A stretch of DNA of 64,000 nt from an uncultured Actinomycetes bacterium. Lineage in GTDB: Bacteria; Actinomycetota; UBA4738; HRBIN12. The number at the start of each line of letters is the position of its first letter. The first letter of the stretch is position 1. A program made the position numbers and the translations under genes. Under the pieces are notes generated by a model. The model searched no databases. It worked only from the letters and a program-made list of their open reading frames with translations, and was not told the origin of the DNA. This document shows, piece after piece, positions 3,498 to 27,259 of the stretch. The stretch spans positions 67,586-131,585 of the forward strand of contig CAZXFA010000001.1 in the NCBI GenBank assembly GCA_964640085.1, written 5' to 3'.

Positions 3498-5225
3498 ATG
3501 ACCGAGCACCGGCCCTGGTTCGGGAGCTACCCGCCCGAGGTCTCGCGGACCCTCGAGCCGTACCCCGACATGTCGCTGTTCGGCCTCCTCGAGTCGTCCG
3601 CACGCAAGCACCCAGATGCCACGGCCATCCGATGGTTCGGCCGGACGATCCGGTTCGCGGACCTGCTGCGGGAGACCGAGCGGTGCTCGGCCGCCCTGGC
3701 CGGGCTGGGCGTGCGGCCCGGGGATCGGATTGCCCTGATCATGCCCAACTGTCCTCAGTACGTGATCGCGTACTACGCGGCGGCGCGCCTCGGCGCGGTC
3801 GCCGTAGGCAACAACCCCCTGTACACCAAGCGGGAGATGGAGCATCAGCTCCGCGACTACGGCCCGAAGGTCGTGATCGTGCTCGACCTGCTGTACCGGG
3901 ACTTCGCGAGCCTGTTCCCCTCGCTTGGGGTGGAGCACGTGGTTGTGGCCGGACTGCAGGAGTACATGCCGTTCCCGAAGAAGCAGCTCGCGCAGGCGCT
4001 CCGTTTCAAGAAGATGCAGCGTGAGCAGGGCAAGCCCTGGCCCCCGGTGCCCTCGGGCGCGCCCGTCCGGCGGTGGAAGACCTGGGTGCGCGGTGCGGGG
4101 CCCGTCCCGGTCGCGGCCCACGTGGACCCCGGCCGGGAGGCCGCGGCGTTCGTGTACACGGGTGGCACCACCGGCGTGAGCAAGGGGGCCATGATCTCCC
4201 ACCGCAACCTGGTGGCCAACGCGATGCAGGGCGCCGCGTACCTCGGGCTGCGCGAGGGGGAGGAGGGGTTGCTGGGGTCGCTCCCGTTCTTCCACTCCTT
4301 CGGCATGCTGGTGATGAATGTCGCGATCCTCGTCGCGGGGAAGCTGATCCCGATCCCGAACCCGCGGGACCTGCACCTGGTGTTGGAGGAGATCCACAAC
4401 GAGAAGCCGACCTTCGTCCCGGGCGTCCCCAGGCTGTTCACCTCCCTGAACGAATCGCCGCTGGTGGCCAAGTACGACCTGCGGTCGGTCCGGGCCTGCA
4501 TCTCGGGGGGGGCGCCGCTGCCCACGGCCGTGGCCACGCGGTTCGCGGAGATCACGGGTGGCGCCACCCTGGTCGAGGGCTACGGGCTCACCGAGGCCTC
4601 GCCCGTCACCCATGCGAACCCGCTCCACGGGGAGCGCCGCGCGGGCTCGATCGGGCTGCCTGTCCCCGACACCGACTGCAAGATCGTCGACCTGGAGAAT
4701 CCCGACCGCCAGGTGGGGCCGGGCGAGCGGGGGGAGCTGTGCATCCGCGGTCCCCAGGTGATGCTCGGCTACTGGAACCGCCCCGAGGAGACCGCGCGGA
4801 CGGTCATCAACGGATGGCTCCACACGGGGGACGTCGCCGTTATGGACCCCGACGGGTACTTTCGGATCGTGGATCGCCTGAAGGAGCTCGTCATCGTGTC
4901 CGGGTTCAACGTGTATCCGAACGAGGTCGAGGAGGCCCTGTACCACCATCCGAAGATCTCCAAGGCCGCGGTGATCGGGGTCCCGGACGAGCGGACGGGA
5001 GAGGCGGTGAAAGCCTTCATCGTCCTGAAGGAGGGCGAGACGGCCACGGCGGAAGAGATCATGCAATGGGTCCGCGACCCCTCGAACGGCCTCACCGGCT
5101 ACCGGGTGCCTAAGCTGATCGAGTTCCGGGAGTCGTTGCCCGAGACGATGATCGGCAAGGTCCTGCGCCGGGTGCTGATGGAGGAGGAGCGCCGGAAGGC
5201 GGCGGCGGGCACCTCCTCCCCGTGA
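3498..5225 (+). CDS. fadD: long-chain-fatty-acid--CoA ligase (AMP-dependent synthetase/ligase)
   Basis: MTEHRPWFGSYPPEV... from ATG 3498, in the frame of track ORF 3210..5225. AMP-binding signature VYTGGTTGVSKGAMISHRNL, then GYGLTEASPV and a C-terminal lysine loop (MIGKVLRRVL). 576 aa. Confidence 0.9.
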   Translation: MTEHRPWFGSYPPEVSRTLEPYPDMSLFGLLESSARKHPDATAIRWFGRTIRFADLLRETERCSAALAGLGVRPGDRIALIMPNCPQYVIAYYAAARLGAVAVGNNPLYTKREMEHQLRDYGPKVVIVLDLLYRDFASLFPSLGVEHVVVAGLQEYMPFPKKQLAQALRFKKMQREQGKPWPPVPSGAPVRRWKTWVRGAGPVPVAAHVDPGREAAAFVYTGGTTGVSKGAMISHRNLVANAMQGAAYLGLREGEEGLLGSLPFFHSFGMLVMNVAILVAGKLIPIPNPRDLHLVLEEIHNEKPTFVPGVPRLFTSLNESPLVAKYDLRSVRACISGGAPLPTAVATRFAEITGGATLVEGYGLTEASPVTHANPLHGERRAGSIGLPVPDTDCKIVDLENPDRQVGPGERGELCIRGPQVMLGYWNRPEETARTVINGWLHTGDVAVMDPDGYFRIVDRLKELVIVSGFNVYPNEVEEALYHHPKISKAAVIGVPDERTGEAVKAFIVLKEGETATAEEIMQWVRDPSNGLTGYRVPKLIEFRESLPETMIGKVLRRVLMEEERRKAAAGTSSP

Positions 5226-5764
5226 GCCCACTGCCCGCCGACCTCGGGGACGGCGCGATCCTCCGCCGCCTGCGGATGGACGACATCCAGGCGCTCTGGG
5301 GAGCCGTCGAGTCCGAGCGCGCGCGCGTCGGTGCCTGGATGCCCTGGGTCGAGGTGACACGCACGATCGAGGAGGAGCGCGGCTGGCTCGAACGCGTGGT
5401 CGCGGACGAGCGTGGTCTCGAGGGATGTGGGGTGTTCCTGGGCGAGGAGTATCTCGGTGGGGTGGGGCTCATGCCGGACGCGTGGGGCATCGTCGGGGAG
5501 ATCGGGTACTGGATCCGCTCCGACTTCGAGGGGCGGGGGTTCGTGACGCGGGCGGTCCGTGCGCTCATCGACATCGGGTTCGGGGAGCTTCGCCTGCACC
5601 GCATCGTGATCCGTGCCGGGGTGGACAACGCCCGGAGCCGGGCGATCCCCGAACGCCTCGGGTTCTCGCGGGAGGGGATCGCCCGCGAGGAGGGGCGCGG
5701 CTCGGGCGGCTTCTACGACCTCGTGGTGTACGGGCTCTTGGAGAAGGAGTGGCCTCGCGCGTGA
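5222..5764 (+). CDS. GNAT family N-acetyltransferase (RimJ/RimL-like)
   Basis: GTG start overlaps the fadD stop (GTGA). Acetyl-CoA-binding region IGYWIRSDFEGRGFVTRAVRALIDIGF. 180 aa. Confidence 0.75.
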   Translation: MSPLPADLGDGAILRRLRMDDIQALWGAVESERARVGAWMPWVEVTRTIEEERGWLERVVADERGLEGCGVFLGEEYLGGVGLMPDAWGIVGEIGYWIRSDFEGRGFVTRAVRALIDIGFGELRLHRIVIRAGVDNARSRAIPERLGFSREGIAREEGRGSGGFYDLVVYGLLEKEWPRA

Positions 5765-6471
5765 TCGGGGCCGTGATCTTCGACCTGTTCGGGACGCTCG
5801 TCCACGAGTTCCCTCGCGCGGACTGGGAGGCCTGGCTCGAGGTGAGCGCGGCCGCGATGGAGGCCGACCCGGAACGGTTCCGGCGAGCCTGGGAGGCCAC
5901 GGCGGTCGAACGCCAGACGGGCGGGCTGGGGGACATCGAGGAGAACCTGCGGACGGTGGCCGCCCGGGCGGGTGCCTGGCCGACCGGTTCCCAGATCGCG
6001 GAGGCGCTGGAGGCTCGCGCCGCCCTGTACCGGAAGTGGTTCGTCCCCCGGCCCGGCGCCGGTGAGGTGTTGGCGGAGCTCCGCCGCCGTCCGGTGCCCA
6101 CCGCGTTGATCAGCATGTGCGCCCCCGACACCCCGCCGCTGTGGCTGGCCTCGCCGCTTGCCGGGAGCGTCGATGTCGAGGTCTTCTCCTCCGAGGTCGG
6201 CCTGCGCAAGCCCGATCCGGCGATCTACCACCTGGCGTGCGAGCGGCTGCGCGTCGAGCCTGCGGACTGCCTGTACGTCGGGGACGGGAGCTACGGTGAG
6301 CTCACCGGCGCGGCCGCGGTCGGGATGCGAGCGGTGCTGCTCCGGGACCCGGCGGAGGCGGAGACCCCAGCGCTGCGCCCGCACCCGGATCCCTGGGAGG
6401 GGGAGCGGATCGAGCATCTGCGCGAGGTGCTCGCGATCCTGGACGAAGGGGACGCGGCGCGCATGGCCTGA
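5761..6471 (+). CDS. HAD-superfamily hydrolase (haloacid dehalogenase-like phosphatase)
   Basis: GTG 5761 overlaps the GNAT stop (GTGA). N-terminal motif I VIFDLFGTLV, later ...LYVGDGSYGELTGA (motif IV). In the frame of track ORF 5425..6471. Confidence 0.75.
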   Translation: MIGAVIFDLFGTLVHEFPRADWEAWLEVSAAAMEADPERFRRAWEATAVERQTGGLGDIEENLRTVAARAGAWPTGSQIAEALEARAALYRKWFVPRPGAGEVLAELRRRPVPTALISMCAPDTPPLWLASPLAGSVDVEVFSSEVGLRKPDPAIYHLACERLRVEPADCLYVGDGSYGELTGAAAVGMRAVLLRDPAEAETPALRPHPDPWEGERIEHLREVLAILDEGDAARMA

Positions 6472-9930: not shown

Positions 9931-10695
9931 TCACGTGAGCCTCACCGGGAGCCCTCGCTGGACGAGGTACCGCTTCACGTCGGCGATCGTGAGCTGTCCG
10001 AAGTGGAACCGGGACGCGGCGAGGGCGGCGTCCGCTCCCCCCTCGGTGAGAGCCTCGGCGAAATGCTCGACGTGGCCCGCTCCGCCGCTCGCGACGACCG
10101 GAACCCCGACGGCTTGACCGACCGCCCGGAGGAGCTCGACGTCGTAGCCCTCCCCGGTCCCGTCCTGGTCCATCGACGTGAGCAAGACCTCGCCCGCGCC
10201 TCGGCGGGCCGTGGCCTCTGCCGCCCACCCCACGGCCTCCCGACCGGTCGGCGTCCGTCCGGCATCGACGAACACCTCCCACCCGCCGTCCCGGCGCTTG
10301 GCGTCGATCGCGATCACCATGCACTGGGTCCCGAACCGGTCGGCGCAGCGCTCGAGCAGCTCCGGGTCGCGGACGGCCGCGCTGTTGACCGCCACCTTGT
10401 CCGCGCCGGCCCGCAGCAACGTCCGGACGTCCTCCTGGCTCCGCACACCGCCGCCCACGGTGAGTGGGATGAACACCTGTTCGGCCGTCCCGGCGATCAC
10501 GTCGAGCGTGGCCTCCCGACCCTCGACGGTGGCGGCGATGTCGAGGAACACCAGCTCGTCCGCCCCCTCCGCGTCGTAGCGCGACGCGAGCTCGACCGGG
10601 TCCCCCGCGTCCACCAGGTCGACGAACCGGGTCCCCTTCACGACCCGCCCGGCGTCGACGTCCAGGCACGGGATCACCCGCTTGGCCAGCGTCAT
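9931..10695 (-). CDS. hisF: imidazole glycerol phosphate synthase, cyclase subunit
   Basis: [25 protein letters not shown]...; full-length HisF TIM-barrel signature. Confidence 0.95.
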
Positions 10696-11393
10696 CCCGT
10701 CACCACCTCCGCGAGCACGAGCGTCCCCGCGTGGATGGCCCTGCCCACCACCACGGCTTCGAGCGAGAGCCTGGACAGCGTGCGGACGTCCTCCGCCGTC
10801 CGAACCCCACCGCTCGCGATCACAGGACGGTCGGTGAGCTCGAGCACGCGCCGGTACAGCTCGAGGTCGGGTCCCTCGAGCGTGCCGTCACGCGCGATCG
10901 ACGTCACCAGGTACCTGGGCGCCCCACCCTCCTCGAGCGAGGCGAGGGCCTCCTCGAGCCTCGGTCCCTCCTCCCGCCAGCCGTGGGTCCGGAGGCGGCC
11001 GTCGCGGACGTCGAGCGCCACCACGATCCGAGGCTCGAACCGCCGCACGGCCTCCGCCACCAGGTGGCGATCGGTCGCGGCGGCGGTCCCGAGGATCGCC
11101 CGGGCGGCGCCGTCGGTGAGCGCGTCGTCGATCGCGGCCACCGTCCGGAGGCCACCGCCGACCTGCACCGGGACGGCCAGGCTCCGACAGATCTCCTTCA
11201 CGACGTCGCGGTTCGACCCCTCTCCGGCCGCGGCATCCAGATCCACGACGTGGAGCCACCGGGCGCCCTCGGCCTCGAACCGCCGGGCGACCGCAACCGG
11301 ATCCTCCCCGACGACCGTCTCGGCCGACAGGTCCCCGCGGACCAGCCGAACGCAGCGCCCGGCTCGAAGGTCGATCGCCGGGATCACGATCAC
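10692..11393 (-). CDS. hisA: phosphoribosylformimino-5-aminoimidazole carboxamide ribotide isomerase (HisA; in actinobacteria often the bifunctional PriA)
   Basis: [21 protein letters not shown]... from GTG 11393, 16 nt downstream of the hisH stop with a purine-rich spacer. ATGA overlap with hisF. Confidence 0.9.
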
Positions 11394-11409
11394 GTGCCGA
11401 CCTCGCCCT

Positions 11410-12015
11410 TCACGCCCCGGCCTCCAGTACGAAGGCCTCGTACAGCTGGAGCCCTGGCTCACCCGACTTCTCAGGGTGGAACTGGGTGGCGAACAGGGTG
11501 TCGCGCGCGACGGCCGCGGCGAACGGGCGGCCGTGTTCGGTCACGCCCACCGTGGTGTGGGCGTGCACGTCGGGTGCGAACGAGTGGACGAAGTAGAAGC
11601 GGGTCCCCGTGGGGACGTCGCGGACGTAGGGATGACGCTCGGTCCACCGGACGACGTTCCACCCCATGTGCGGCACCTTCACCCGCGACGGGAACCGGCG
11701 GGACCGGCCCTCGAAGAGGCCGAGCCCGGGCGTGGCGTCCTCCTCGCTGCCGTCGAAGAGCACCTGCATGCCCACGCAGACGGCGAACACGGGTCGCCCG
11801 CTCGTGACGAACCCACGGATCGCGTCGTCGAGACGGCGCTCGACCAGGTTCCGCATGCACGCGCCGAAGTGCCCGACGCCCGGCACCACGAGCCCGTTGG
11901 CGGCGAGCGCCCGCTCCGCGTCATCGGTGACGTCGGGCTTGCCGCCCACGTGCTCGACCGCGCGGGCGACGCTCCGGAGGTTCCCCATCCCGTAGTCCAA
12001 GATCGCGATCGTCAC
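11410..12015 (-). CDS. hisH: imidazole glycerol phosphate synthase, glutamine amidotransferase subunit
   Basis: MTIAILDYGMGNLRSVARAVEHVG...; catalytic triad context AVCVGMQ ... FHPEKS. Confidence 0.95.
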   Translation of the reverse strand: MTIAILDYGMGNLRSVARAVEHVGGKPDVTDDAERALAANGLVVPGVGHFGACMRNLVERRLDDAIRGFVTSGRPVFAVCVGMQVLFDGSEEDATPGLGLFEGRSRRFPSRVKVPHMGWNVVRWTERHPYVRDVPTGTRFYFVHSFAPDVHAHTTVGVTEHGRPFAAAVARDTLFATQFHPEKSGEPGLQLYEAFVLEAGA

Positions 12016-12593
12016 AGCGTGCCCTTGGTGCTCGGGATGCCCTCACCCACCACGCTGACCGCGTCGCGGAGGCACGTCGCGAGCGCCTTGAACTCGGCCT
12101 CGACCACGTGATGCGGCGATCGGCCGCTCACCCGGCGCACGTGGAGGGTCATCTCGGCCGCGGTCGCGAACGCGCGCAGGAAGTCCTCCGTCAGGCCGGT
12201 GTCGTACGTGCCGATCGTTTCGGCCGGGACGTCCACCTCGTGTACCACGAACGGCCGGCCCGACAGATCGAGCGCCACCTCGACGGCCGCCTCGTCCAGC
12301 GGAACCGTGATCGAGGCGAACCGCCGGGTCCCCGCCTTGTGGCCGAGCGCCTGGTGCAGCGCCTGGCCCAGGGCGAGCCCCACGTCCTCGACCGTGTGGT
12401 GGCCGTCGACCTCGAGGTCGCCCTTCGCCACCAGGGAGAGGTCGAACCCGGCGTGGACGCCGAGCTGCTGGAGCATGTGGTCGAAGAACGGCAGACCGGT
12501 GTCCGCGCTCGCCGTGCCCGAGCCGTCGACCTCCAGCTCGACCCGGACGTCGGTCTCTTTCGTGACGCGCTCGACCACCGACGAACGGCTCAT
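12012..12593 (-). CDS. hisB: imidazoleglycerol-phosphate dehydratase
   Basis: ...TKETDVRVELEVDGSG...FFDHMLQQL...HHTVEDVGLALGQAL...; metal-binding His motifs of IGPD. Confidence 0.95.
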   Translation of the reverse strand: MSRSSVVERVTKETDVRVELEVDGSGTASADTGLPFFDHMLQQLGVHAGFDLSLVAKGDLEVDGHHTVEDVGLALGQALHQALGHKAGTRRFASITVPLDEAAVEVALDLSGRPFVVHEVDVPAETIGTYDTGLTEDFLRAFATAAEMTLHVRRVSGRSPHHVVEAEFKALATCLRDAVSVVGEGIPSTKGTL

Positions 12594-13639
12594 GCGAGGA
12601 CCTCCTCCAAGGCGGACAGGAACCCGTCGACCTCCTCCGAGGTGCCGGCCGTGACGCGCAGGCAGCCGGGCACCTGTTCGGAGAAGTCACGGACGAGGAC
12701 GCCGCGATCGAGCAGGCCGCGCCAGACGGCGGCGGCATCCCCCGGGGGACGGAACAGGACGAAGTTGGCGTCCGAGGGGAACGCTTCGACCTCGAGACGG
12801 GGCAGCTCCCCTAGGATCCGGTCGCGCTGCGCGCGGACCGCATCCAGGATCGCGAGCGCCTCCTCCCGGTGGTCGAGCGCGACCAGGCCGGCGGCCTGCG
12901 TGAGCGCGCTGATGTGGTAGGGGAGCCGGACGCGACGAAGATCCTCGATCGCTTCTGGGTCGCCGAGGCAGTAGCCGATCCTCGCGCCGGCCAGGGCGAA
13001 TGCCTTCGAGAAGGTGCGGACGATCACGACGTTCGGGGTCGCCGCGAGGAGCGAGATGGCGCTGCGACCCCCGAACTCGAGGTAGGCCTCGTCCACCACG
13101 ACGAGCGCGTCGCCTGGTGCCGCGAGCTCGCCCACGACTTCGATCGGCTGCGAATTGCCGGTCGGGTTGTTCGGCGAGCAGACGAAGATCACGTGCGGCT
13201 CGAGTTCGATCGCTCGCTCGACGTGCTCCGAGCCGATCATCCAGGGCGGGTCGAGATGCACGGACGCGACCTCGCCGTGCGTAGCCCACGTGAGGCGCGG
13301 GTGCAGCGCATATGTCGGCTCGAACAGAGCGGCGCACCGGCCCGGCCCGCCGTAGGCCTGGAGCAGCTGCTGGATCACCTCGTTCGAGCCGTTCGCGACC
13401 CACGTCCCCTCGACGACGTGGTCGTTCAGGGCCGCCAGGCGCGAGCGCAGCTCGACGGCCTCGCGGTCCGGGTACCGGTGCAAGGTCTGTGCGCGGACGG
13501 CCTCGGCGAGGTCGTCGCGGAACCCATCCGGCAATGGGTACGGGCACTCGTTCGTGTTCAGGCGGATCGGGACGTCGAGCTGGGGGGCCTGGTACGGCTC
13601 GACGTCACGGAGCCCGGGGCGCGGGAGCGCGGGGCTCAC
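12590..13639 (-). CDS. hisC: histidinol-phosphate aminotransferase
   Basis: ...LNTNECPYPLP...; PLP-lysine context VRTFSKAFALAGARIGY. 349 aa. Confidence 0.95.
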   Translation of the reverse strand: MSPALPRPGLRDVEPYQAPQLDVPIRLNTNECPYPLPDGFRDDLAEAVRAQTLHRYPDREAVELRSRLAALNDHVVEGTWVANGSNEVIQQLLQAYGGPGRCAALFEPTYALHPRLTWATHGEVASVHLDPPWMIGSEHVERAIELEPHVIFVCSPNNPTGNSQPIEVVGELAAPGDALVVVDEAYLEFGGRSAISLLAATPNVVIVRTFSKAFALAGARIGYCLGDPEAIEDLRRVRLPYHISALTQAAGLVALDHREEALAILDAVRAQRDRILGELPRLEVEAFPSDANFVLFRPPGDAAAVWRGLLDRGVLVRDFSEQVPGCLRVTAGTSEEVDGFLSALEEVLA

Positions 13640-14925
13640 GGTCGGCGTCCCCCATCTTCGGCGCGGACCTCGACGGCGCGGGCGTGGCCCGGTAAGCCCT
13701 CGCTGCGGGCGAGCTCCGCGATCTCCGGCGCGAGGGCGACGGCCGCGTCGGGGGAGATCTCGACCACCGACATCACCTTCACGAAGTCGCTCGCGCGAAG
13801 GCCGCTCGCGAACCGTGCGGTTCCGGCCGTCGGAAGCACGTGGTTCGAGGCCACGCCGTAGTCACCGAACGGCACGGGCGTGTGGGCTCCGAGGAAGATC
13901 GCACCGGCGTTCCGTACGCCGTTGGCGAACACCTCCTCCGAGCTCACCGCGAGCTGGAGGTGCTCGGGGGCCAGGTCGTTCACGACCTCGACCGCGTGCT
14001 TCCGGTCGACGACGAGCACGGCGCGGGCGCCCTCGAGCGCGCTCACGACGATCTCGCGTCGCGCGGCCCGGAGGACCTCCATCTGCAGGTAGCGCTGGAC
14101 CTCGCGCACCAGTTCCTCGTCGTGGCTCACGAGCGTCGCGACCGCATCCGGGTCGTGCTCCGCTTGCGCGATCAGGTCGACCGCGAGCCACCGCGGATCG
14201 GCGTCGGGATCGGCGACCAGCACCAGCTCCGTCGGTCCGGCGAGCCCGTCGATCCCGATCACGCCGGCGAGCTGGCGCTTGGCCTCGGTGACGTACACGT
14301 TGCCGGGCCCCACGACCTTGTCCACGGCCGGCACCGAGCCGGTACCGTAGGCCATCGCGGCCACGGCCTGCGCGCCGCCGACCTTCACCACGCGCGTGGC
14401 GCCGGCCGCCCGCGCCGCGTACAGGACCTCTGGGTGGATCGAGCCGTCCTGCCGTGGCGGCGTGCAGACCACGATCTCCTCGACGCCAGCCACGGTCGCC
14501 GGTGTCACGGTCATGGCGATCGAGCTCGGGTAGACGGCGCGGCCCCCGGGGACGTAGCAGCCGACCGCGCGGATCGGGCGGACCCGCTCGCCGAACCGCA
14601 CGCCTCCTCTCTCGTCCTGCCACTCGATCGGAAGCTGGCGGCGGTGCAGGTCCGCCACGCGCGCGATCAGCGCGTCGACGCCCCGGCGGAGCCCATCCGG
14701 CACGCCGTCGATCGCAGCGGCGAACTCGTCGGGCGAGACGACCACCCCACGGTCGCGCAGGTCGGCCCCGTCGAACCGCAAGGTCAGGTCGAGCAGCGCG
14801 TCGTCCCCCTCCTGGCGGACGCGCGCGAGGATGCCGCGGACGGTATCGGAGACGTGGGGGTCGATCTCGAGGTGCCGGGGCTCGAGCCGCTCCCTCCGCT
14901 CCCGGAGGTCGAGGATCTCGAGCAC
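13636..14925 (-). CDS. hisD: histidinol dehydrogenase
   Basis: ...GAQAVAAMAYGT...IDGLAGPTELVLVAD...AQAEHDPDA...; GTG start. 429 aa. Confidence 0.95.
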   Translation of the reverse strand: MLEILDLRERRERLEPRHLEIDPHVSDTVRGILARVRQEGDDALLDLTLRFDGADLRDRGVVVSPDEFAAAIDGVPDGLRRGVDALIARVADLHRRQLPIEWQDERGGVRFGERVRPIRAVGCYVPGGRAVYPSSIAMTVTPATVAGVEEIVVCTPPRQDGSIHPEVLYAARAAGATRVVKVGGAQAVAAMAYGTGSVPAVDKVVGPGNVYVTEAKRQLAGVIGIDGLAGPTELVLVADPDADPRWLAVDLIAQAEHDPDAVATLVSHDEELVREVQRYLQMEVLRAARREIVVSALEGARAVLVVDRKHAVEVVNDLAPEHLQLAVSSEEVFANGVRNAGAIFLGAHTPVPFGDYGVASNHVLPTAGTARFASGLRASDFVKVMSVVEISPDAAVALAPEIAELARSEGLPGHARAVEVRAEDGGRRP

Positions 14926-22889: not shown

Positions 22890-23576
22890 TCAACCCCTCC
22901 GGAACTCGAGCAGGGTCTCGCCGATCGTGATCCGGTCGCCGTCGTCCAGGATCCGCTCCTGCACCGCCTCGTCGTTCACGAGGGTGCCGTTGGTCGATCC
23001 GAGGTCGGTGAGGACGTACTCGCCGTCCGCGTGTCGGATCCGGGCGTGCTGACGCGAGGCGCCGGGATCGCTTACCACGATGTCGCACTCGGGCAGGCGG
23101 CCGAGGGTGATCGGGCCCGTGCCCAGTCGGAACGTCCGTGCGTCGCCCTCGCGCTCGTACAGCGTCAGGCTCGCGGCCTCAGAAGGCTGCGGCGCGAGCT
23201 CCTCCTCCCCCTCGACGAAGGAGGCCTCGCAGGTGAAACGCCCTTTCGACAGGTCCTGGTCGATCAGGAGCTCGACCTCCGGCGGCCCGACCAGGCCCCA
23301 GCCGCGCTCGGTCGCGGTCTCGCGGACCACGCGCTTGAGCTCCGCCGCCAACGCGTGCTCGGCCTGCTCGAACCGTTGCCCGTCGTGCTCGGAGACCGAC
23401 AGCACGTACCGGTTCGGCGCCCAGACCTCCCGGACGCCCACCGTCCGGTTCGCCTCCATCTCGCGCATCACGCGCTTGGCGAGCTCGACCGGTTGCAGGC
23501 CGGACCGGAACGTGGTCGCGAAGAAGCCCTCGACCAGGTTCCCGAGGCGGCGCTCGAAGTCACGGAGGATCGGCAC
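22890..23576 (-). CDS. fhaA: FHA-domain protein FhaA-like (DUF3662 + FHA)
   Basis: N-terminal DUF3662-like region (MPILRDFERRLGNLVEGFF...) and C-terminal FHA (...GRLPECDIVVSDPGASRQHARI...STNGTLVN...). Confidence 0.85.
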   Translation of the reverse strand: MPILRDFERRLGNLVEGFFATTFRSGLQPVELAKRVMREMEANRTVGVREVWAPNRYVLSVSEHDGQRFEQAEHALAAELKRVVRETATERGWGLVGPPEVELLIDQDLSKGRFTCEASFVEGEEELAPQPSEAASLTLYEREGDARTFRLGTGPITLGRLPECDIVVSDPGASRQHARIRHADGEYVLTDLGSTNGTLVNDEAVQERILDDGDRITIGETLLEFRRG

Positions 23577-23692
23577 GTCGAGATGCGTTCGCGCAGCTAG
23601 CAGCCGTCGTTGCCGCTATCCTACCGGTCCGCCGTGCCTCGCACGCGCCTGGCGGGTCGGCCGGGAGGCGCTGCTACGATGTGTGACCCCAC

Positions 23693-23779
<87 letters not shown>

Positions 23780-23801
23780 CGCAGCCATTCCACCCGATCG
23801 A

Positions 23802-23859
23802 CCGATCGCGCTGGAGCGTGTCGCGCCCCCGCGAGCATCGCGAGCCCCAGCGCGATCGG
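23802..23859. terminator. long hairpin (13-bp perfect inverted repeat CCGATCGCGCTGG / CCAGCGCGATCGG, 32-nt loop) between the convergent tRNA-Leu and nirK 3' ends
   Basis: Perfect inverted repeat read directly from the sequence. There is no U-tract, so if it acts as a terminator it would be a bidirectional, I-shaped type. Confidence 0.35.
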
Positions 23860-23890
23860 GAGCAGGATCTGCGTGCCGTCGTCGGGATCG

Positions 23891-25276
23891 CTAGTGGGCG
23901 GTGCCCGGCAGCACGGTGATCGTGCCCTCCATGCCCGCCTCCCGGTGTCCCGGGATCGAGCAGTAGAAGGTGTACGTGCCCGGGATGGCTTCGAACGTCC
24001 CCTCCACGGTCTCGTTCGCGCCCATCACCAGCTGGACATCGAGCTCATCGATCGTGAAGTCGTGCTCGAACGCGTCCTGGTTGGCGATCGCGAGCGTGAC
24101 CTCCCCCTCGGCGACCTCCAGGTCGCCGGGCGAGAACCCCGTGATCGTGGCATCGACCGACACCGGCCCCTCCTGCGCGCCGCCGTCGTCCGATCCGCCC
24201 TCGACCACCGCAGGGGTGGCGCCGTACCGGAGCACACCCGCGGTGAACGGATCACCGAACACCGGGTAGGTCGCCGGGGCGGCCTGCGCATCCGCCGCCA
24301 CCTGGAGCACGCCCACCGCGCCGAGCCCCGTGTACGCGAACGAATGCGTGACGAACGGGTACAGCCCCTCGTCGGGGATCCTGAGCTCGAACATCGTGCC
24401 TCCGCCCGGCGGGACGTTGTAGGTCTGGACTCCGTTCAGGGCGTTGGTCGGGTTCCCGTCCGCGTAGACGTGGTCGAACAGCGCGCCGATCACGTGGAAC
24501 GCGTTCGTGAGGGTCGGGCCCGCGTTCATCACCCAGATCCGGATCAGCTCGTTCGGGCGCGCCTGGAGGGGTGCGTCCAGGTACCGGTTCGCCATCCCGT
24601 CGAACACGACGTGCGTCGGATCGGCGGCCTCCATCTTGGCCACATCACCCGTGTACAGGGCGTCGGGTCCCGGCTCGTCGCTGGCGTAGAACTCGCTCGA
24701 CGTGAGCACGAACTCCCGGGCCGGCTCCAGGCCCTCGGGCTCGACGATGATCGCCCCGTACATGCCGTTCGCGATGTGATGCAGCACGGGGGGGACCCCG
24801 CAGTGGTACATGAACACGCCGGGGAACCTCGCGACCCAGTCGAACGTGAGCGTCTCGCCGGGGGCCACGGGCTGGTAGTTCACGTTCCACGGCGTCTGGG
24901 CCGCGTGGAAGTCGATCGAATGCGACAGGCCGAGACCCGACTCGTTCGTGAGGGTGAAGCGGACCGTGTCTCCGAGCTTCACCCGGATCACCGGACCCGG
25001 GGCCGTCCCGTTGAACGTCCACACCTGGTAGTCGACGCCATCGGCCAGGGTCTGGGTCGTCTCCCCGGCCACCAGATCGACCTCGACGATGTTCCCCGTC
25101 CCCTCGCCTTCCAGCCGGAAGGCCTCGGCGACGTCGGGAACCTCTGGGCTGGTGGTAGCTCCCTCGTCGCCACCCCGGGCGATCGGTCGAACCCAGGTCA
25201 GCCCCACGATCAGCAGCGCGACCTGGATCATCGCTCCCACCGCAAGCACCCTGCGCATCGTCCCCACCCTTTCCAT
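23891..25276 (-). CDS. nirK: copper-containing nitrite reductase with a C-terminal cupredoxin extension (three-domain NirK)
   Basis: N-terminal signal/TM segment. SHSIDFHAAQ and MYHCGVPPVLHHIANGMYGAIIVEP carry the type-1/type-2 Cu ligand pattern of NirK. The C-terminal ~100 aa (...YTFYCSIPGHREAGMEGTITV) is a plastocyanin/azurin-like Cys-His-Met domain. An alternative start lies at ATG 25258. Confidence 0.85.
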   Translation of the reverse strand: MERVGTMRRVLAVGAMIQVALLIVGLTWVRPIARGGDEGATTSPEVPDVAEAFRLEGEGTGNIVEVDLVAGETTQTLADGVDYQVWTFNGTAPGPVIRVKLGDTVRFTLTNESGLGLSHSIDFHAAQTPWNVNYQPVAPGETLTFDWVARFPGVFMYHCGVPPVLHHIANGMYGAIIVEPEGLEPAREFVLTSSEFYASDEPGPDALYTGDVAKMEAADPTHVVFDGMANRYLDAPLQARPNELIRIWVMNAGPTLTNAFHVIGALFDHVYADGNPTNALNGVQTYNVPPGGGTMFELRIPDEGLYPFVTHSFAYTGLGAVGVLQVAADAQAAPATYPVFGDPFTAGVLRYGATPAVVEGGSDDGGAQEGPVSVDATITGFSPGDLEVAEGEVTLAIANQDAFEHDFTIDELDVQLVMGANETVEGTFEAIPGTYTFYCSIPGHREAGMEGTITVLPGTAH

Positions 25277-25555
25277 AAGTTCGGCACTAAACGTTCGGGT
25301 TAGTCTGGCCGGGTTGGCAGGTGCGGCAAGGGGCCGGAGGTCCCGGTCGCACAGGGCCGACCGGCCTTGGTGCGTTCGTCAGGGCCGACGGGGTTCGAAG
25401 CGGCGGAGGAGATCGGACGGGTTGGGGCGGACGGGCCGACGGAGGAGAGGTGCGCCGGCCCGTCCGCGTCGCCCTCCCGGTGGGGCAGGAGGTAGAAATG
25501 TACAGTAATCTACTCAACGTCAGGTGGCAAGCCCAACGTAGGGTAGACTCCCCTC
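25277..25555. promoter_or_regulatory. divergent nirK / nsrR control region with an AT-rich inverted-repeat element (GTAGAAATGTACAGTAATCTAC, 25492..25513)
   Basis: 279-nt intergenic region between divergent starts. An unusually AT-rich 25-30 nt island in a 72% GC background, with GTAGA...TCTAC arms and a central TGTACA, sits ~40 nt upstream of the nsrR GTG. A second AT-richer patch (TTCGGCACTAAACGTTCGGGTTAGTCT) abuts the nirK start. Confidence 0.4.
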
Positions 25556-26053
25556 GTGGACCTGACCCTCACCCGCCGGGGCGACTACGTGGTCCGAGCG
25601 GCGATCAGCCTCGCGGCCGCCTGGGACGGGAACGGCGCCTACCGGAAGATCCGGGAGATCGCCGGCGAGATGCGCCTGCCTCCGAGCTACACGCCGCAGC
25701 TCCTCGGCGTGCTGGCCAAGGCCAGGCTGGCCGAGGCCAAGGCGGGTCGGGACGGCGGGTACCGGCTGACCCGGCATCCCGACGAGATCTCCCTCCTGCA
25801 GGTGATCGAGGCGGCTGAAGGGGACCTGGTCTCCAGGCGCTGTCCCCTCCGGGGCGGCCCCTGCCGGTGGGACGACGTGTGCGCCCTCCACCCCACCTGG
25901 AGCAAGGCCTCCGAGGCGATCCGCGCGACCCTGGCCGGAACCTCGTTGCTGGAGGTCGCGCGGGTCGATCGCCACCTCGGGGAGGGTGGGAAGATCCCCC
26001 TGCCGCCGGCCGGGCACCGGCGAACCCCCCACCGCCACCGCCCCCGTCGCTGA
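25556..26053 (+). CDS. nsrR: Rrf2-family transcriptional regulator, NsrR-like (three-Cys [Fe-S] ligand motif)
   Basis: N-terminal Rrf2 wHTH (...LTRRGDYVVRAAISLA...), then CPLRGGPCRWDDVC, matching the C-x5-6-C-x5-C cluster-ligand spacing of NsrR/IscR-type regulators. Divergent to nirK. Confidence 0.8.
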   Translation: MDLTLTRRGDYVVRAAISLAAAWDGNGAYRKIREIAGEMRLPPSYTPQLLGVLAKARLAEAKAGRDGGYRLTRHPDEISLLQVIEAAEGDLVSRRCPLRGGPCRWDDVCALHPTWSKASEAIRATLAGTSLLEVARVDRHLGEGGKIPLPPAGHRRTPHRHRPRR

Positions 26054-26150
26054 TCGGGGCGGTCAGGCCGAACGGCACCTCCCGGCCGGGGCGTCCGGCC
26101 CTCTCCTCCCGCCCCCGACGGCGGTACCAAGGGACGAGGAGGCGAGACGG

Positions 26151-26420
26151 ATGGCTGGATGGCAGGGCTTCCAGCAGTGCCCGGGCTGTGGCCTGGACCT
26201 GCTCACGGGTGAGGGGGTCCGGGGGTGCGCCTGGGGCGACTGCCCCTACCTCCCGGACGATCTGCGCATGACCTGTGACTACTGCATGTTCAACTTCCTC
26301 ACGATGGAGGGCAATCCTCCCTGCGACGCCCCGATGACCTGCGATCACGCGAAGGAGCCGCTGGCGCACGTGGAGAACCTGCGTCGGTGGGCGGCCGAGC
26401 AGGGTCGCGTAGTCCCCTAG
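26151..26420 (+). CDS. small Cys-rich protein (89 aa, 9 Cys; hypothetical metal/redox protein)
   Basis: ATG 26151, preceded by GAGGAGG at -14..-8. Product MAGWQGFQQCPGCGLDLLTGEGVRGCAWGDCPYLPDDLRMTCDYCMFNFLTMEGNPPCDAPMTCDH.... In the frame of track ORF 25986..26420. Same strand as nsrR, 97 nt downstream. Confidence 0.5.
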   Translation: MAGWQGFQQCPGCGLDLLTGEGVRGCAWGDCPYLPDDLRMTCDYCMFNFLTMEGNPPCDAPMTCDHAKEPLAHVENLRRWAAEQGRVVP

Positions 26421-26449
26421 GGGTCGAGCGGGGGGACGCGTTCGCGGGA

Positions 26450-27259
26450 TCAGCCCGCCTCGCTCGGATCCGATGGCTCCGACGCGCCTCCGAGGAGCCG
26501 CAGGTCGGGTAGCTCGAGCGGATCGCCCGGACGGGAGCTGGGAGCGACCTCCTGTCCGACGAGCAGGCGGAGGAGGTCCGGGAGATCCACCCGACGTCTC
26601 CCCGTGCCGTACCCGACGGCCTCCAGCCGCATCGTCGGCAGCTCCCCGAAGCCCTCGACGGTCGCGGCCAGGATCGCCGCGCCGGTCGCGGTGGTGAGCT
26701 CGGCGGCCACCCCGCGCGAGAACAGGGGGGCGCCGCGCAGGAGCTCCAGGACGGTCGGGGAGGGGATCGGCATCGCCCCGTGCTCGGTCCGCGCCAGCCC
26801 GAGACCCGTCGGCACCGCGGAGGAGAACACCCGGTCCACACCCAACGTCGTCAAGCCGATGGCGGTGCCGACGACCGCCACGACGGCGTCGACGCCGGCG
26901 GCCGCCGGGAAGGTCACGGCCTCCAGCTCGCGACGATGGACGCGGGCTTCCGCCTCCGCCAGGCGTCGGAAGATGCGGTGCGCTAGCAGCAGCGCGTCCT
27001 CGGGGAGGTCCCCCGCGTCCAGCAACGCCCGCACGCTCCGGTAGGTCCTGATCACGCCCACCGCCGAGGTGCGCACATCGACCAGGGTGGCGCGGATCCC
27101 CTGCTCCTCGACCCCGGTCACGTCGAGCTCGAACGGGCCGAGCGGGAGCGAGGACAGATGGGTCCGGATCGTGTCGGGGTCCGCGCCGACATCGATCAGG
27201 GCCGCGAGCGCGGTGTCGCCGGTGATGCCGGCGATGCAGTCGAAGTAGGCCACGCGCAT
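26450..27259 (-). CDS. LarC N-terminal-domain (DUF111/LarC1)-like protein, 269 aa, lacking the LarC2 C-terminal domain
   Basis: MRVAYFDCIAGITGDTALAALIDVGAD... matches the LarC/DUF111 N-terminal signature (M.ILY.DCFSGISGDM.LGAL.D.G). The protein ends in an acidic Pro-rich tail after ~270 aa. The track ORF 26450..27829 extends upstream but overlaps a better-supported plus-strand gene. Confidence 0.55.
   Translation of the reverse strand: MRVAYFDCIAGITGDTALAALIDVGADPDTIRTHLSSLPLGPFELDVTGVEEQGIRATLVDVRTSAVGVIRTYRSVRALLDAGDLPEDALLLAHRIFRRLAEAEARVHRRELEAVTFPAAAGVDAVVAVVGTAIGLTTLGVDRVFSSAVPTGLGLARTEHGAMPIPSPTVLELLRGAPLFSRGVAAELTTATGAAILAATVEGFGELPTMRLEAVGYGTGRRRVDLPDLLRLLVGQEVAPSSRPGDPLELPDLRLLGGASEPSDPSEAG

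Follow-up and report, generated by a model that had tools for sequence, protein, structure and literature searches.

A predicted operator between an Rrf2-family regulator gene and a divergent three-domain copper nitrite reductase gene in uncultured Actinomycetota

Copper nitrite reductase catalyses the step that releases nitric oxide (NO), and downstream nitrous oxide (N2O), from soils. In a stretch of 64,000 nucleotides (nt) from an uncultured Actinomycetes bacterium (contig CAZXFA010000001.1; hereafter the window, G+C content 71.6%), a gene for such an enzyme, nirK, lies back to back with rrf2, which encodes a regulator of the Rrf2 family. The locus raises the question of whether the regulator controls nirK and, if so, through which DNA element and in response to which signal. 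Soil and sediment metagenomes are rich in the clade that carries this nirK–rrf2 module, of which no member has been cultured; every record of a close relative bears the label ‘MAG: Actinomycetota bacterium’ (MAG, metagenome-assembled genome). A predicted operator together with a candidate regulator provides a testable handle on the timing of nirK expression in this clade. The account that we consider probable is that a cluster-binding Rrf2 dimer binds a palindrome in the intergenic region, represses both its own leaderless operon and the divergent nirK, and releases the DNA upon a change in the cluster, while NirK reduces nitrite via a tethered cupredoxin.

For comparison we used 80 species-level loci from GTDB representative genomes, together with contexts in metagenome assemblies. 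Adjacency of nirK and rrf2 was counted in the 44 species-level loci that have an Rrf2 identity of at least 49% and enough upstream sequence. The DNA upstream of rrf2 was aligned across loci, and positions of the palindrome were counted over 28 aligned species-level loci. nirK is immediately upstream of rrf2 in 20 of the 44 loci, always in divergent orientation and with gaps of 61–175 nt, a recurrence that supports the functional link proposed for these genes from the window alone; in 32 more distant loci, nirK was never found beside rrf2. The pairing is also present in lineages at 54–62% Rrf2 identity that lack the small gene downstream of rrf2, and it involves two NirK subtypes, about 70–78% and about 64% identical to the window enzyme, which suggests that nirK has been replaced at a fixed regulatory site. 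In the window itself the two starts are 279 nt apart for the longest nirK open reading frame, as originally noted, and 297 nt apart when the ATG at 25258 is used, which is the nirK start in homologues and in public annotation.

The original prediction had pointed to an A+T-rich island at 25492–25520 as a regulatory element of the control region. The island, with 66% A+T, is indeed overlapped by a conserved dyad, the palindrome at 25498–25520 (Table 1). Its family consensus is ACGTAGAGTAg-n-nTACTCAACGT, i.e. ACGTAGAGTA-N3-TACTCAACGT. In the aligned loci the outer ACGT and the inner AGT/ACT hardly vary, whereas the five bases at the centre are unconstrained, and on average 7.2 of 11 positions are complementary across the aligned sites. 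In about 25 of the 28 loci, with or without nirK, the 5′ end of the palindrome lies 58–61 nt ahead of the rrf2 start codon. The arms first proposed, GTAGA and TCTAC around TGTACA, had to be abandoned as a functional dyad: they are complementary in the window only, and 27 related loci give a mean of 1.5 of 5 positions, the level expected by chance.

The palindrome is also rare. A search of the window with ACGTNNAGTANNNTACTNNACGT, allowing up to three mismatches, returned it as the single match against 0.01 expected, and a position weight matrix (PWM) scan of the window gave no other position at 12 bits or more. In related loci totalling about 800 kb, nearly all of its occurrences adjoin rrf2. 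In public metagenomes the strict pattern ACGTNGAGTANNNNACTNAACGT has 22 matches, 12 of them in low-G+C DNA and taken as chance. An rrf2 homologue adjoins eight of the ten high-G+C matches, and the two others represent a single sequence that forms a perfect hairpin, in an unrelated contig of high G+C content.

Could the element be shared promoter DNA, with back-to-back −10 and −35 sequences, or a structural hairpin, and the adjacency of the genes inherited synteny? TANNNT hexamers are present on both of its strands, and the close loci have a common FhaA/tRNA-Leu/LarC synteny, so that the recurrence is in part due to common descent. We nevertheless regard this explanation as highly improbable, since the degree of dyad symmetry, the fixed outer and inner positions and the free centre are the pattern of a site for a dimeric winged-helix protein. 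Moreover, the motif travels with rrf2, for example to a position after the rrf2 stop codon and before a nitrate-reductase-like operon, and the pairing persists where the small protein is missing, across NirK subtypes and, in loci L025, L030 and L057, in the absence of a nearby tRNA-Leu.

If the palindrome is an operator, its position should indicate how it acts. In the loci with gaps of 61–130 nt, it begins 22–70 nt upstream of the nirK ATG, which in short-gap loci has its own ribosome-binding site, GGAGG. Read on the strand of nirK, the left arm of the palindrome contains TACTCT or TACTGT, which are −10-like (TANNNT) hexamers. Because of this spacing, the palindrome in short-gap loci would cover the nirK core promoter or early leader, a position appropriate for a repressor and not for an activator. 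On the rrf2 side, TAGACT, TACACT or TAGAAT is present at the same distance from the rrf2 start in nearly all loci, and since the −10-like TAGACT of the window precedes the GTG by only 6 nt, the arrangement suggests that the rrf2 mRNA is leaderless or nearly so. Between the palindrome and this hexamer lies a possible second, degenerate site, which ends 5 nt before TAGACT and spans the −35 and spacer region of the rrf2 promoter. The same register scores 10–25 bits in loci L029, L030, L012, L036 and L046, it is occupied by three sites in tandem in L049, and the distal CAACGT or AAGGT is conserved. An isolated half-site close to nirK may be an auxiliary site: the sequence ACTNAACGT occurs twice in the 64 kb, both times in the nirK–rrf2 intergenic region, against 0.32 occurrences expected, and it is not conserved in L012, the nearest nirK-bearing relative.

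The identity of the regulator bears on the signal to which this arrangement might respond. It is a member of the Rrf2 superfamily, scoring 92.6 bits against PF02082 (cut-off 30) and 89 bits against TIGR00738 (cut-off 73.3). Five residues, D10, C96, C103, C109 and H112, are invariant in 26 homologues. The cysteine motif, set in a CPLRGG context, is therefore C-x6-C-x5-C-x2-H (C96-x6-C103-x5-C109, then H112) and not C-x6-C-x6-C as initially read. A profile alignment puts C96, C103, C109 and H112 one to one on C92, C98, C104 and H107 of Escherichia coli IscR, and D10 is at the position that alignment offsets equate with residue 8 of ScNsrR. Because D10 and H112 are both invariant, the family keeps both candidate fourth ligands, Asp and His, and its ligand set appears to mix the IscR and NsrR patterns.

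The regulator fits no curated Rrf2 subfamily model in NCBIfam. The IscR models TIGR02010 and NF008110 give 58.7 bits (cut-off 207) and 40.6 bits (cut-off 275) respectively, the SUF regulator, RirA and CymR models give 50.1, 44.6 and 39.1 bits, all far under their cut-offs, and the E. coli-type NsrR model NF008240 gives 22.8 bits (cut-off 182). When a profile of the 26 homologues was compared with the PDB, IscR of Thermincola scored 55 bits, RsrR 49, E. coli IscR 47, CymR 42 and ScNsrR (5n07) 39. The original assignment as NsrR-like was to fall if the protein aligned better with IscR/RsrR or CymR and the palindrome did not recur at any other NO-related gene. These scores give the first half of that condition and do not support the assignment, and the IscR-type His ligand is present as well. 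The regulator is best described as a new Rrf2 subfamily and a functional analogue of NsrR, not as an NsrR. It adds a subfamily to the family, each component of the module being otherwise of a known kind, and it carries a caution: the label ‘NsrR’, if given to such a protein on the strength of its gene context and three-cysteine motif, would assign it to the wrong family, as the case of RsrR illustrates.

How far could the protein still be a true NsrR orthologue, with a [4Fe-4S] cluster held by three cysteines and an aspartate and a specific response to NO? In ScNsrR the cysteine ligands are Cys93, Cys99 and Cys105, with x5-x5 spacing, and the fourth ligand of the [4Fe-4S] cluster is Asp8 of the partner subunit (PMC5411485); the fourth ligand of IscR, His107, has been stated not to be conserved in NsrR. 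The three cysteines of the present regulator, though spaced x6/x5, its CPLRGG context and the position of Asp10, which alignment offsets equate with that of Asp8, would suit an NsrR. So would the genomic association, since NsrR is paired with nirK in Nitrosomonas europaea and with aniA in Neisseria, and controls hmpA in Streptomyces coelicolor. The module resembles the nirK and aniA circuits in having a cysteine-liganded Rrf2 iron–sulphur (Fe-S) repressor, here putative, beside a copper nitrite reductase, and in autoregulation, here proposed; the regulon, apparently small and local, recalls that of ScNsrR. The ScNsrR operator, 23 bp with two 11-bp inverted repeats around one base, has the same 11-1-11 layout as the palindrome. 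The likeness ends with this layout, however, for the sequence ACGTAGAGT-N5-ACTCAACGT bears no relation to gATGyAT-N5-ATrCATc, the consensus for NsrR. Of the distinct Rrf2 proteins that the profile matched, moreover, only one scores lower than ScNsrR, which is about level with CymR (2y75), the NsrR model score is far under its cut-off, and the invariant histidine at the IscR His107 position is lacking in NsrR proteins. Neither models and similarity nor operator sequence place the regulator among NsrR proteins, and no hmp gene was found beside any of about 110 loci, in contrast with the NsrR circuits. An orthologue of NsrR is thus doubtful.

A different possibility is that the regulator senses redox, oxygen or Fe-S status in the manner of IscR or RsrR, that nirK is one of several respiratory targets and that NO is not the direct signal. 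IscR, of E. coli and Thermincola potens, is the best-scoring characterized relative, and its four ligands align with those of the regulator, which has, however, one extra residue between the first two cysteines and an Asp at position 10, where IscR has Arg or His. RsrR of Streptomyces venezuelae is likewise an actinobacterial Rrf2 regulator with a similar score; its cluster ligands, reported as Cys, Glu and His, differ from the three Cys and His found here. Retention of rrf2 where nirK has been lost would fit a wider role, as would the genes next to the motif in other lineages. In L044, L045, L048 and L051 it lies directly after the rrf2 stop codon, before a membrane-anchor gene and a gene for a NasC-like molybdopterin enzyme (804 bits to an assimilatory nitrate reductase model), and a GAF-HisKA_3 kinase gene is upstream of this operon. 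The rrf2 unit of L004 has as its neighbour a longer version of the NasC-like operon, with additional Fe-S, Rieske and HPP (nitrite-transporter family) genes. More distant Rrf2 proteins are divergent from a COX2–COX1 operon, with a related palindrome, ATCTATAGT-N5-ACTATAGGT, in between. Yet an enrichment of nitrogen-oxide enzymes fits a signal of NO or nitrite equally well. rrf2 does not adjoin isc or suf genes in any locus examined, no Fe-S biogenesis genes are among its called neighbours in the metagenome contexts, the IscR equivalog models exclude the protein, and nitrogen-oxide respiration genes are its neighbours instead. The palindrome also differs from the type 1 and type 2 motifs of IscR. 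We regard sensing of this kind as rather unlikely, though it deserves more weight than orthology with NsrR.

Three observations on the linked genes may be added. The operon of NasC-like type, an unusual one, extends over 6889–12338 in L004, 5465–8802 in L045 and 2414–4816 in L048, and encodes a TmcC/NarI-like anchor, the NasC-like enzyme and 4Fe-4S, Rieske, 93-residue and HPP proteins. In L049, from a MAG labelled Chloroflexota, three tandem operators in the 19-nt register with common ACGT edges (5761–5821) precede a gene for a NapH/NosR-like Fer4_5 membrane protein. In L059, L060 and L065, at about 4898–4942, an Acidimicrobiia Rrf2 gene (about 47% identity) is divergent from a COX2–COX1 haem–copper oxidase operon.

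Several results weigh against the proposed circuit of an autoregulated repressor of nirK. In the window, PWM and pattern searches find no second palindrome upstream of any other gene, and the strict metagenome scan gave neither hmp nor nor targets and no new target class. The suggested search for the element elsewhere therefore had a mixed outcome, with nothing in the rest of the 64 kb and, in other lineages, copies before the NasC-like operon and the NapH/NosR-like gene. rrf2 and the palindrome are without nirK in 24 of the 44 loci, and nirK is therefore not the only or a necessary target of the regulator. The palindrome of the window is 240 nt from the nirK ATG, with a hairpin between them, while the distance is 22–70 nt in most relatives, so that nirK may be controlled here only with the help of a long leader or of the half-site at 25286–25294. 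Furthermore, the regulator is no closer to NsrR than to IscR or RsrR, and its signal can therefore not be inferred by homology, the candidates being NO, redox state and oxygen. There is also a precedent, in that RsrR was initially identified as NsrR and later recognized as another member of the Rrf2 family (PMC5015018). On the other hand, the motif precedes the NasC-like operon and the NapH/NosR-like gene, and a role in nitrogen-oxide respiration therefore stands. Since the high-G+C matches of the strict scan are mostly beside rrf2, and none is with hmp or nor, the regulon looks small, local and centred on respiratory nitrogen-oxide enzymes.

With these points in mind, the circuit of self-repression and nirK repression can be set out as follows. 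The Rrf2 regulator and the eight-cysteine protein encoded downstream would be made from one leaderless transcript. The regulator, as a dimer, would bind the palindrome and probably also the weaker overlapping repeat that reaches into its own −35 and spacer region. In the cluster-bound form it would repress its own operon and nirK, and when the cluster is modified by NO or by a change in redox state or oxygen, the DNA would be released and NirK made. The enzyme would then act as an exported or membrane-anchored three-copper protein in which the cupredoxin feeds electrons to the core for the reduction of nitrite to NO.

The enzymatic half of this scheme depends on the nature of NirK. Pfam finds a Cu-oxidase_3/_2 core followed by Copper-bind/Cupredoxin_1 at residues 368–455. 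The enzyme as a whole begins with a hydrophobic segment, an anchor or signal, continues with the two core domains and ends in a type-1 copper cupredoxin. In an alignment of 56 homologues, the core type-1 copper ligands are H113, C153, H161 and M166, the type-2 ligands are H118, H152 and H305, and the catalytic residues are D116 and H255. The C-terminal cupredoxin has a type-1 site of its own (H399, C433, H438, M443). All of these residues are invariant in the alignment except D116 and M166, which are conserved in at least 90%. The core ligands and catalytic residues align with those of the Hyphomicrobium enzyme, and the ligands are those of a copper nitrite reductase. In a PDB search copper nitrite reductases match at 3e-66. 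The AlphaFold2 model has a predicted local distance difference test (pLDDT) score of 88, and its top fold match is TsNirK (6hbe) over 453 columns. The three-domain NirK first described, with its copper ligands and extra C-terminal cupredoxin, is thus borne out by the Pfam domains, the conserved ligands and the fold. Its class, which had been left for checking, is also that of the copper enzymes, judged by the ligands and by all the top PDB sequence and fold matches, but the TIGR02376 equivalog cut-off is not reached (199.7 against 296.3 bits). Because of this low score we assign NirK to a divergent clade of copper nitrite reductases.

The fused architecture is already known from TsNirK of Thermus scotoductus, in which the two-domain core is likewise followed by a C-terminal type-1 copper cupredoxin and an electron path from T1CuC to T1CuN to T2Cu has been proposed (PMC6400189). 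A comparable internal path may operate in the window enzyme, which carries the corresponding sites. The two proteins are, however, only 30% identical. TsNirK has an axial Gln, and Ser for the catalytic Asp, whereas the window enzyme keeps the canonical Met166 and Asp116. The third domains do not superpose (root-mean-square deviation about 18 Å), a placement that a monomer prediction cannot settle. The nitrite reductase of Hyphomicrobium denitrificans (HdNiR; 2dv6, 6tfd) is the best sequence match both to the core (about 189 bits) and to the cupredoxin (38 bits). Its cupredoxin is N-terminal, so that the domain order is permuted, and the cupredoxin of the window enzyme is nearest by sequence to this domain and not to that of TsNirK. 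A C-terminal cupredoxin is also present in the Nitrosopumilus enzyme, the structure of which has been solved (9cck). Among thousands of public NirK matches, the best 120 all have the same fused domain. As to the two subtypes found beside rrf2, the enzymes of about 64% identity are in L004, L010, L013, L016 and L022 and those of about 70–78% in L012, L030 and L057, in the slot that nirK has in the window and next to equally related Rrf2 proteins.

The variable presence of nirK raises the question of whether the gene is an accessory insertion, as had been proposed for the whole unit. In the synteny group with FhaA and tRNA-Leu, rrf2 and the small gene are fixed and nirK alone varies. What is borne out is that nirK is a cassette of variable presence next to the tRNA-Leu 3′ end; an insertion of the whole unit is not supported. 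The window is homologous to loci L001 and L014, which lack nirK, as far as 23778/23779, at the tRNA 3′ end, and again from 25426–25431; the left boundary of the indel is thus the tRNA 3′ end and the right is the hairpin at 25427–25467. Loci L014, L033 and L035 are ‘empty’, consisting of the tRNA, some 50–130 nt, the conserved hairpin, the operator and rrf2. In L001 (90% Rrf2 identity), 926 nt of unrelated, apparently non-coding DNA take the place of nirK; the 225-residue gene called there matches no family, lacks a codon bias like that of coding DNA and is probably not a gene.

We considered a mobile, tRNA-targeted island and rejected it. The stretch 23650–25560 contains neither att-like repeats nor a second, direct copy of the tRNA 3′ end, there is no integrase or recombinase among the neighbouring genes, and the codon-position G+C of nirK matches that of its neighbours, with no compositional anomaly. 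A metagenome locus points to deletion instead: in L101 the catalytic core has been deleted, and all that remains of nirK, at 4126–4389 and about 200 nt from the operator, is the 3′ end that encodes the cupredoxin. Since this remnant is kept, the nirK-less state can arise by loss, and repeated loss from an ancestral nirK–rrf2 pair is at least as likely as insertion.

The small gene that follows rrf2 in the close clade encodes a protein with eight conserved cysteines. CymR, another Rrf2 protein, needs CysK. By analogy the eight-cysteine protein could serve as a co-repressor, a cluster donor or a receiver of the signal. A bolder reading is that the regulator and this co-transcribed protein form an undescribed two-protein unit for sensing metal or Fe-S, with Asp and His both available as fourth ligand, through which a large uncultured clade of soil Actinomycetota would choose among its respiratory nitrogen-oxide reductases; we offer this as speculation with little likelihood of being right as it stands.

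Table 1. Positions of the genes, predicted sites and structural elements of the nirK–rrf2 locus in the window
Feature	Coordinates	Strand	Details
tRNA-Leu(CAG)	23693..23779	+	ARAGORN; Rfam tRNA 51.9 bits
Perfect 13-bp-stem hairpin	23802–23814 paired with 23847–23859		Inverted repeat I3; between the convergent tRNA-Leu and nirK
nirK	23891..25258, open reading frame to 25276	-	455 residues from ATG 25258; Pfam, NCBIfam and PDB matches, AlphaFold2
Isolated operator half-site	25286..25294	+	ACTAAACGT; 28 nt upstream of nirK ATG; orientation of the operator right arm
G+C-rich hairpin, purine-rich loop	25427..25467	.	GGAGGAGAGG; inverted repeat I6
Main operator (predicted)	25498..25520	.	23-bp 11-1-11 palindrome; window copy ATGTACAGTAA-T-CTACTCAACGT, in full ATGTACAGTAATCTACTCAACGT
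Possible second, degenerate site	25517..25539	.	19-nt register, common ACGT edge; 8.8 bits in the window
−10-like hexamer TAGACT	25544..25549	+	6 nt before rrf2 GTG; conserved
rrf2	25556..26053	+	165 residues; Pfam PF02082; start codon GTG
89-residue protein gene	26151..26420	+	Eight conserved cysteines (CxxC, Cx4C, CxxC, Cx5C); after rrf2 in the close clade

Two hairpins complete the intergenic DNA. The one at the right boundary of the nirK indel has the conserved loop GAGGAGAGGAG, which reads CUCCUCUCCUC on the opposite strand. It is found just ahead of the operator in relatives irrespective of nirK, and over 15 loci compensatory changes affect six of its 11 stem pairs. It has no Rfam match, and could be a terminator for tRNA-Leu, a small RNA or an anti-Shine–Dalgarno element in a long nirK leader. 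The other, with the perfect 13-bp stem, lies in a 116-nt stretch (23780–23895) that folds at −62.2 kcal/mol (z = −3.1 against shuffles). It is terminator-like without a U tract, and a simple terminator scan gave no match to it because the T run is absent. An Rfam scan of 23400–26600 at E ≤ 1 returned the tRNA only, with no known intergenic RNA, and a scan for promoters and terminators of E. coli type gave no matches, a result that is uninformative in such G+C-rich DNA.

The placement of the unit after tRNA-Leu and the 13-bp-stem hairpin agrees with the initial description, as does the housekeeping character of the surroundings, with cell-division genes to one side. Genes for PBP, FtsW/RodA, PP2C, FHA and FhaA proteins lie on that side, and those for LarC, DUF4446, bactofilin and SerRS on the other. 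Further away, on the minus strand at 9931–14925 and upstream of the PknB/PBP/FtsW block, there is a cluster that resembles histidine biosynthesis genes, as judged by N-terminal sequences only.

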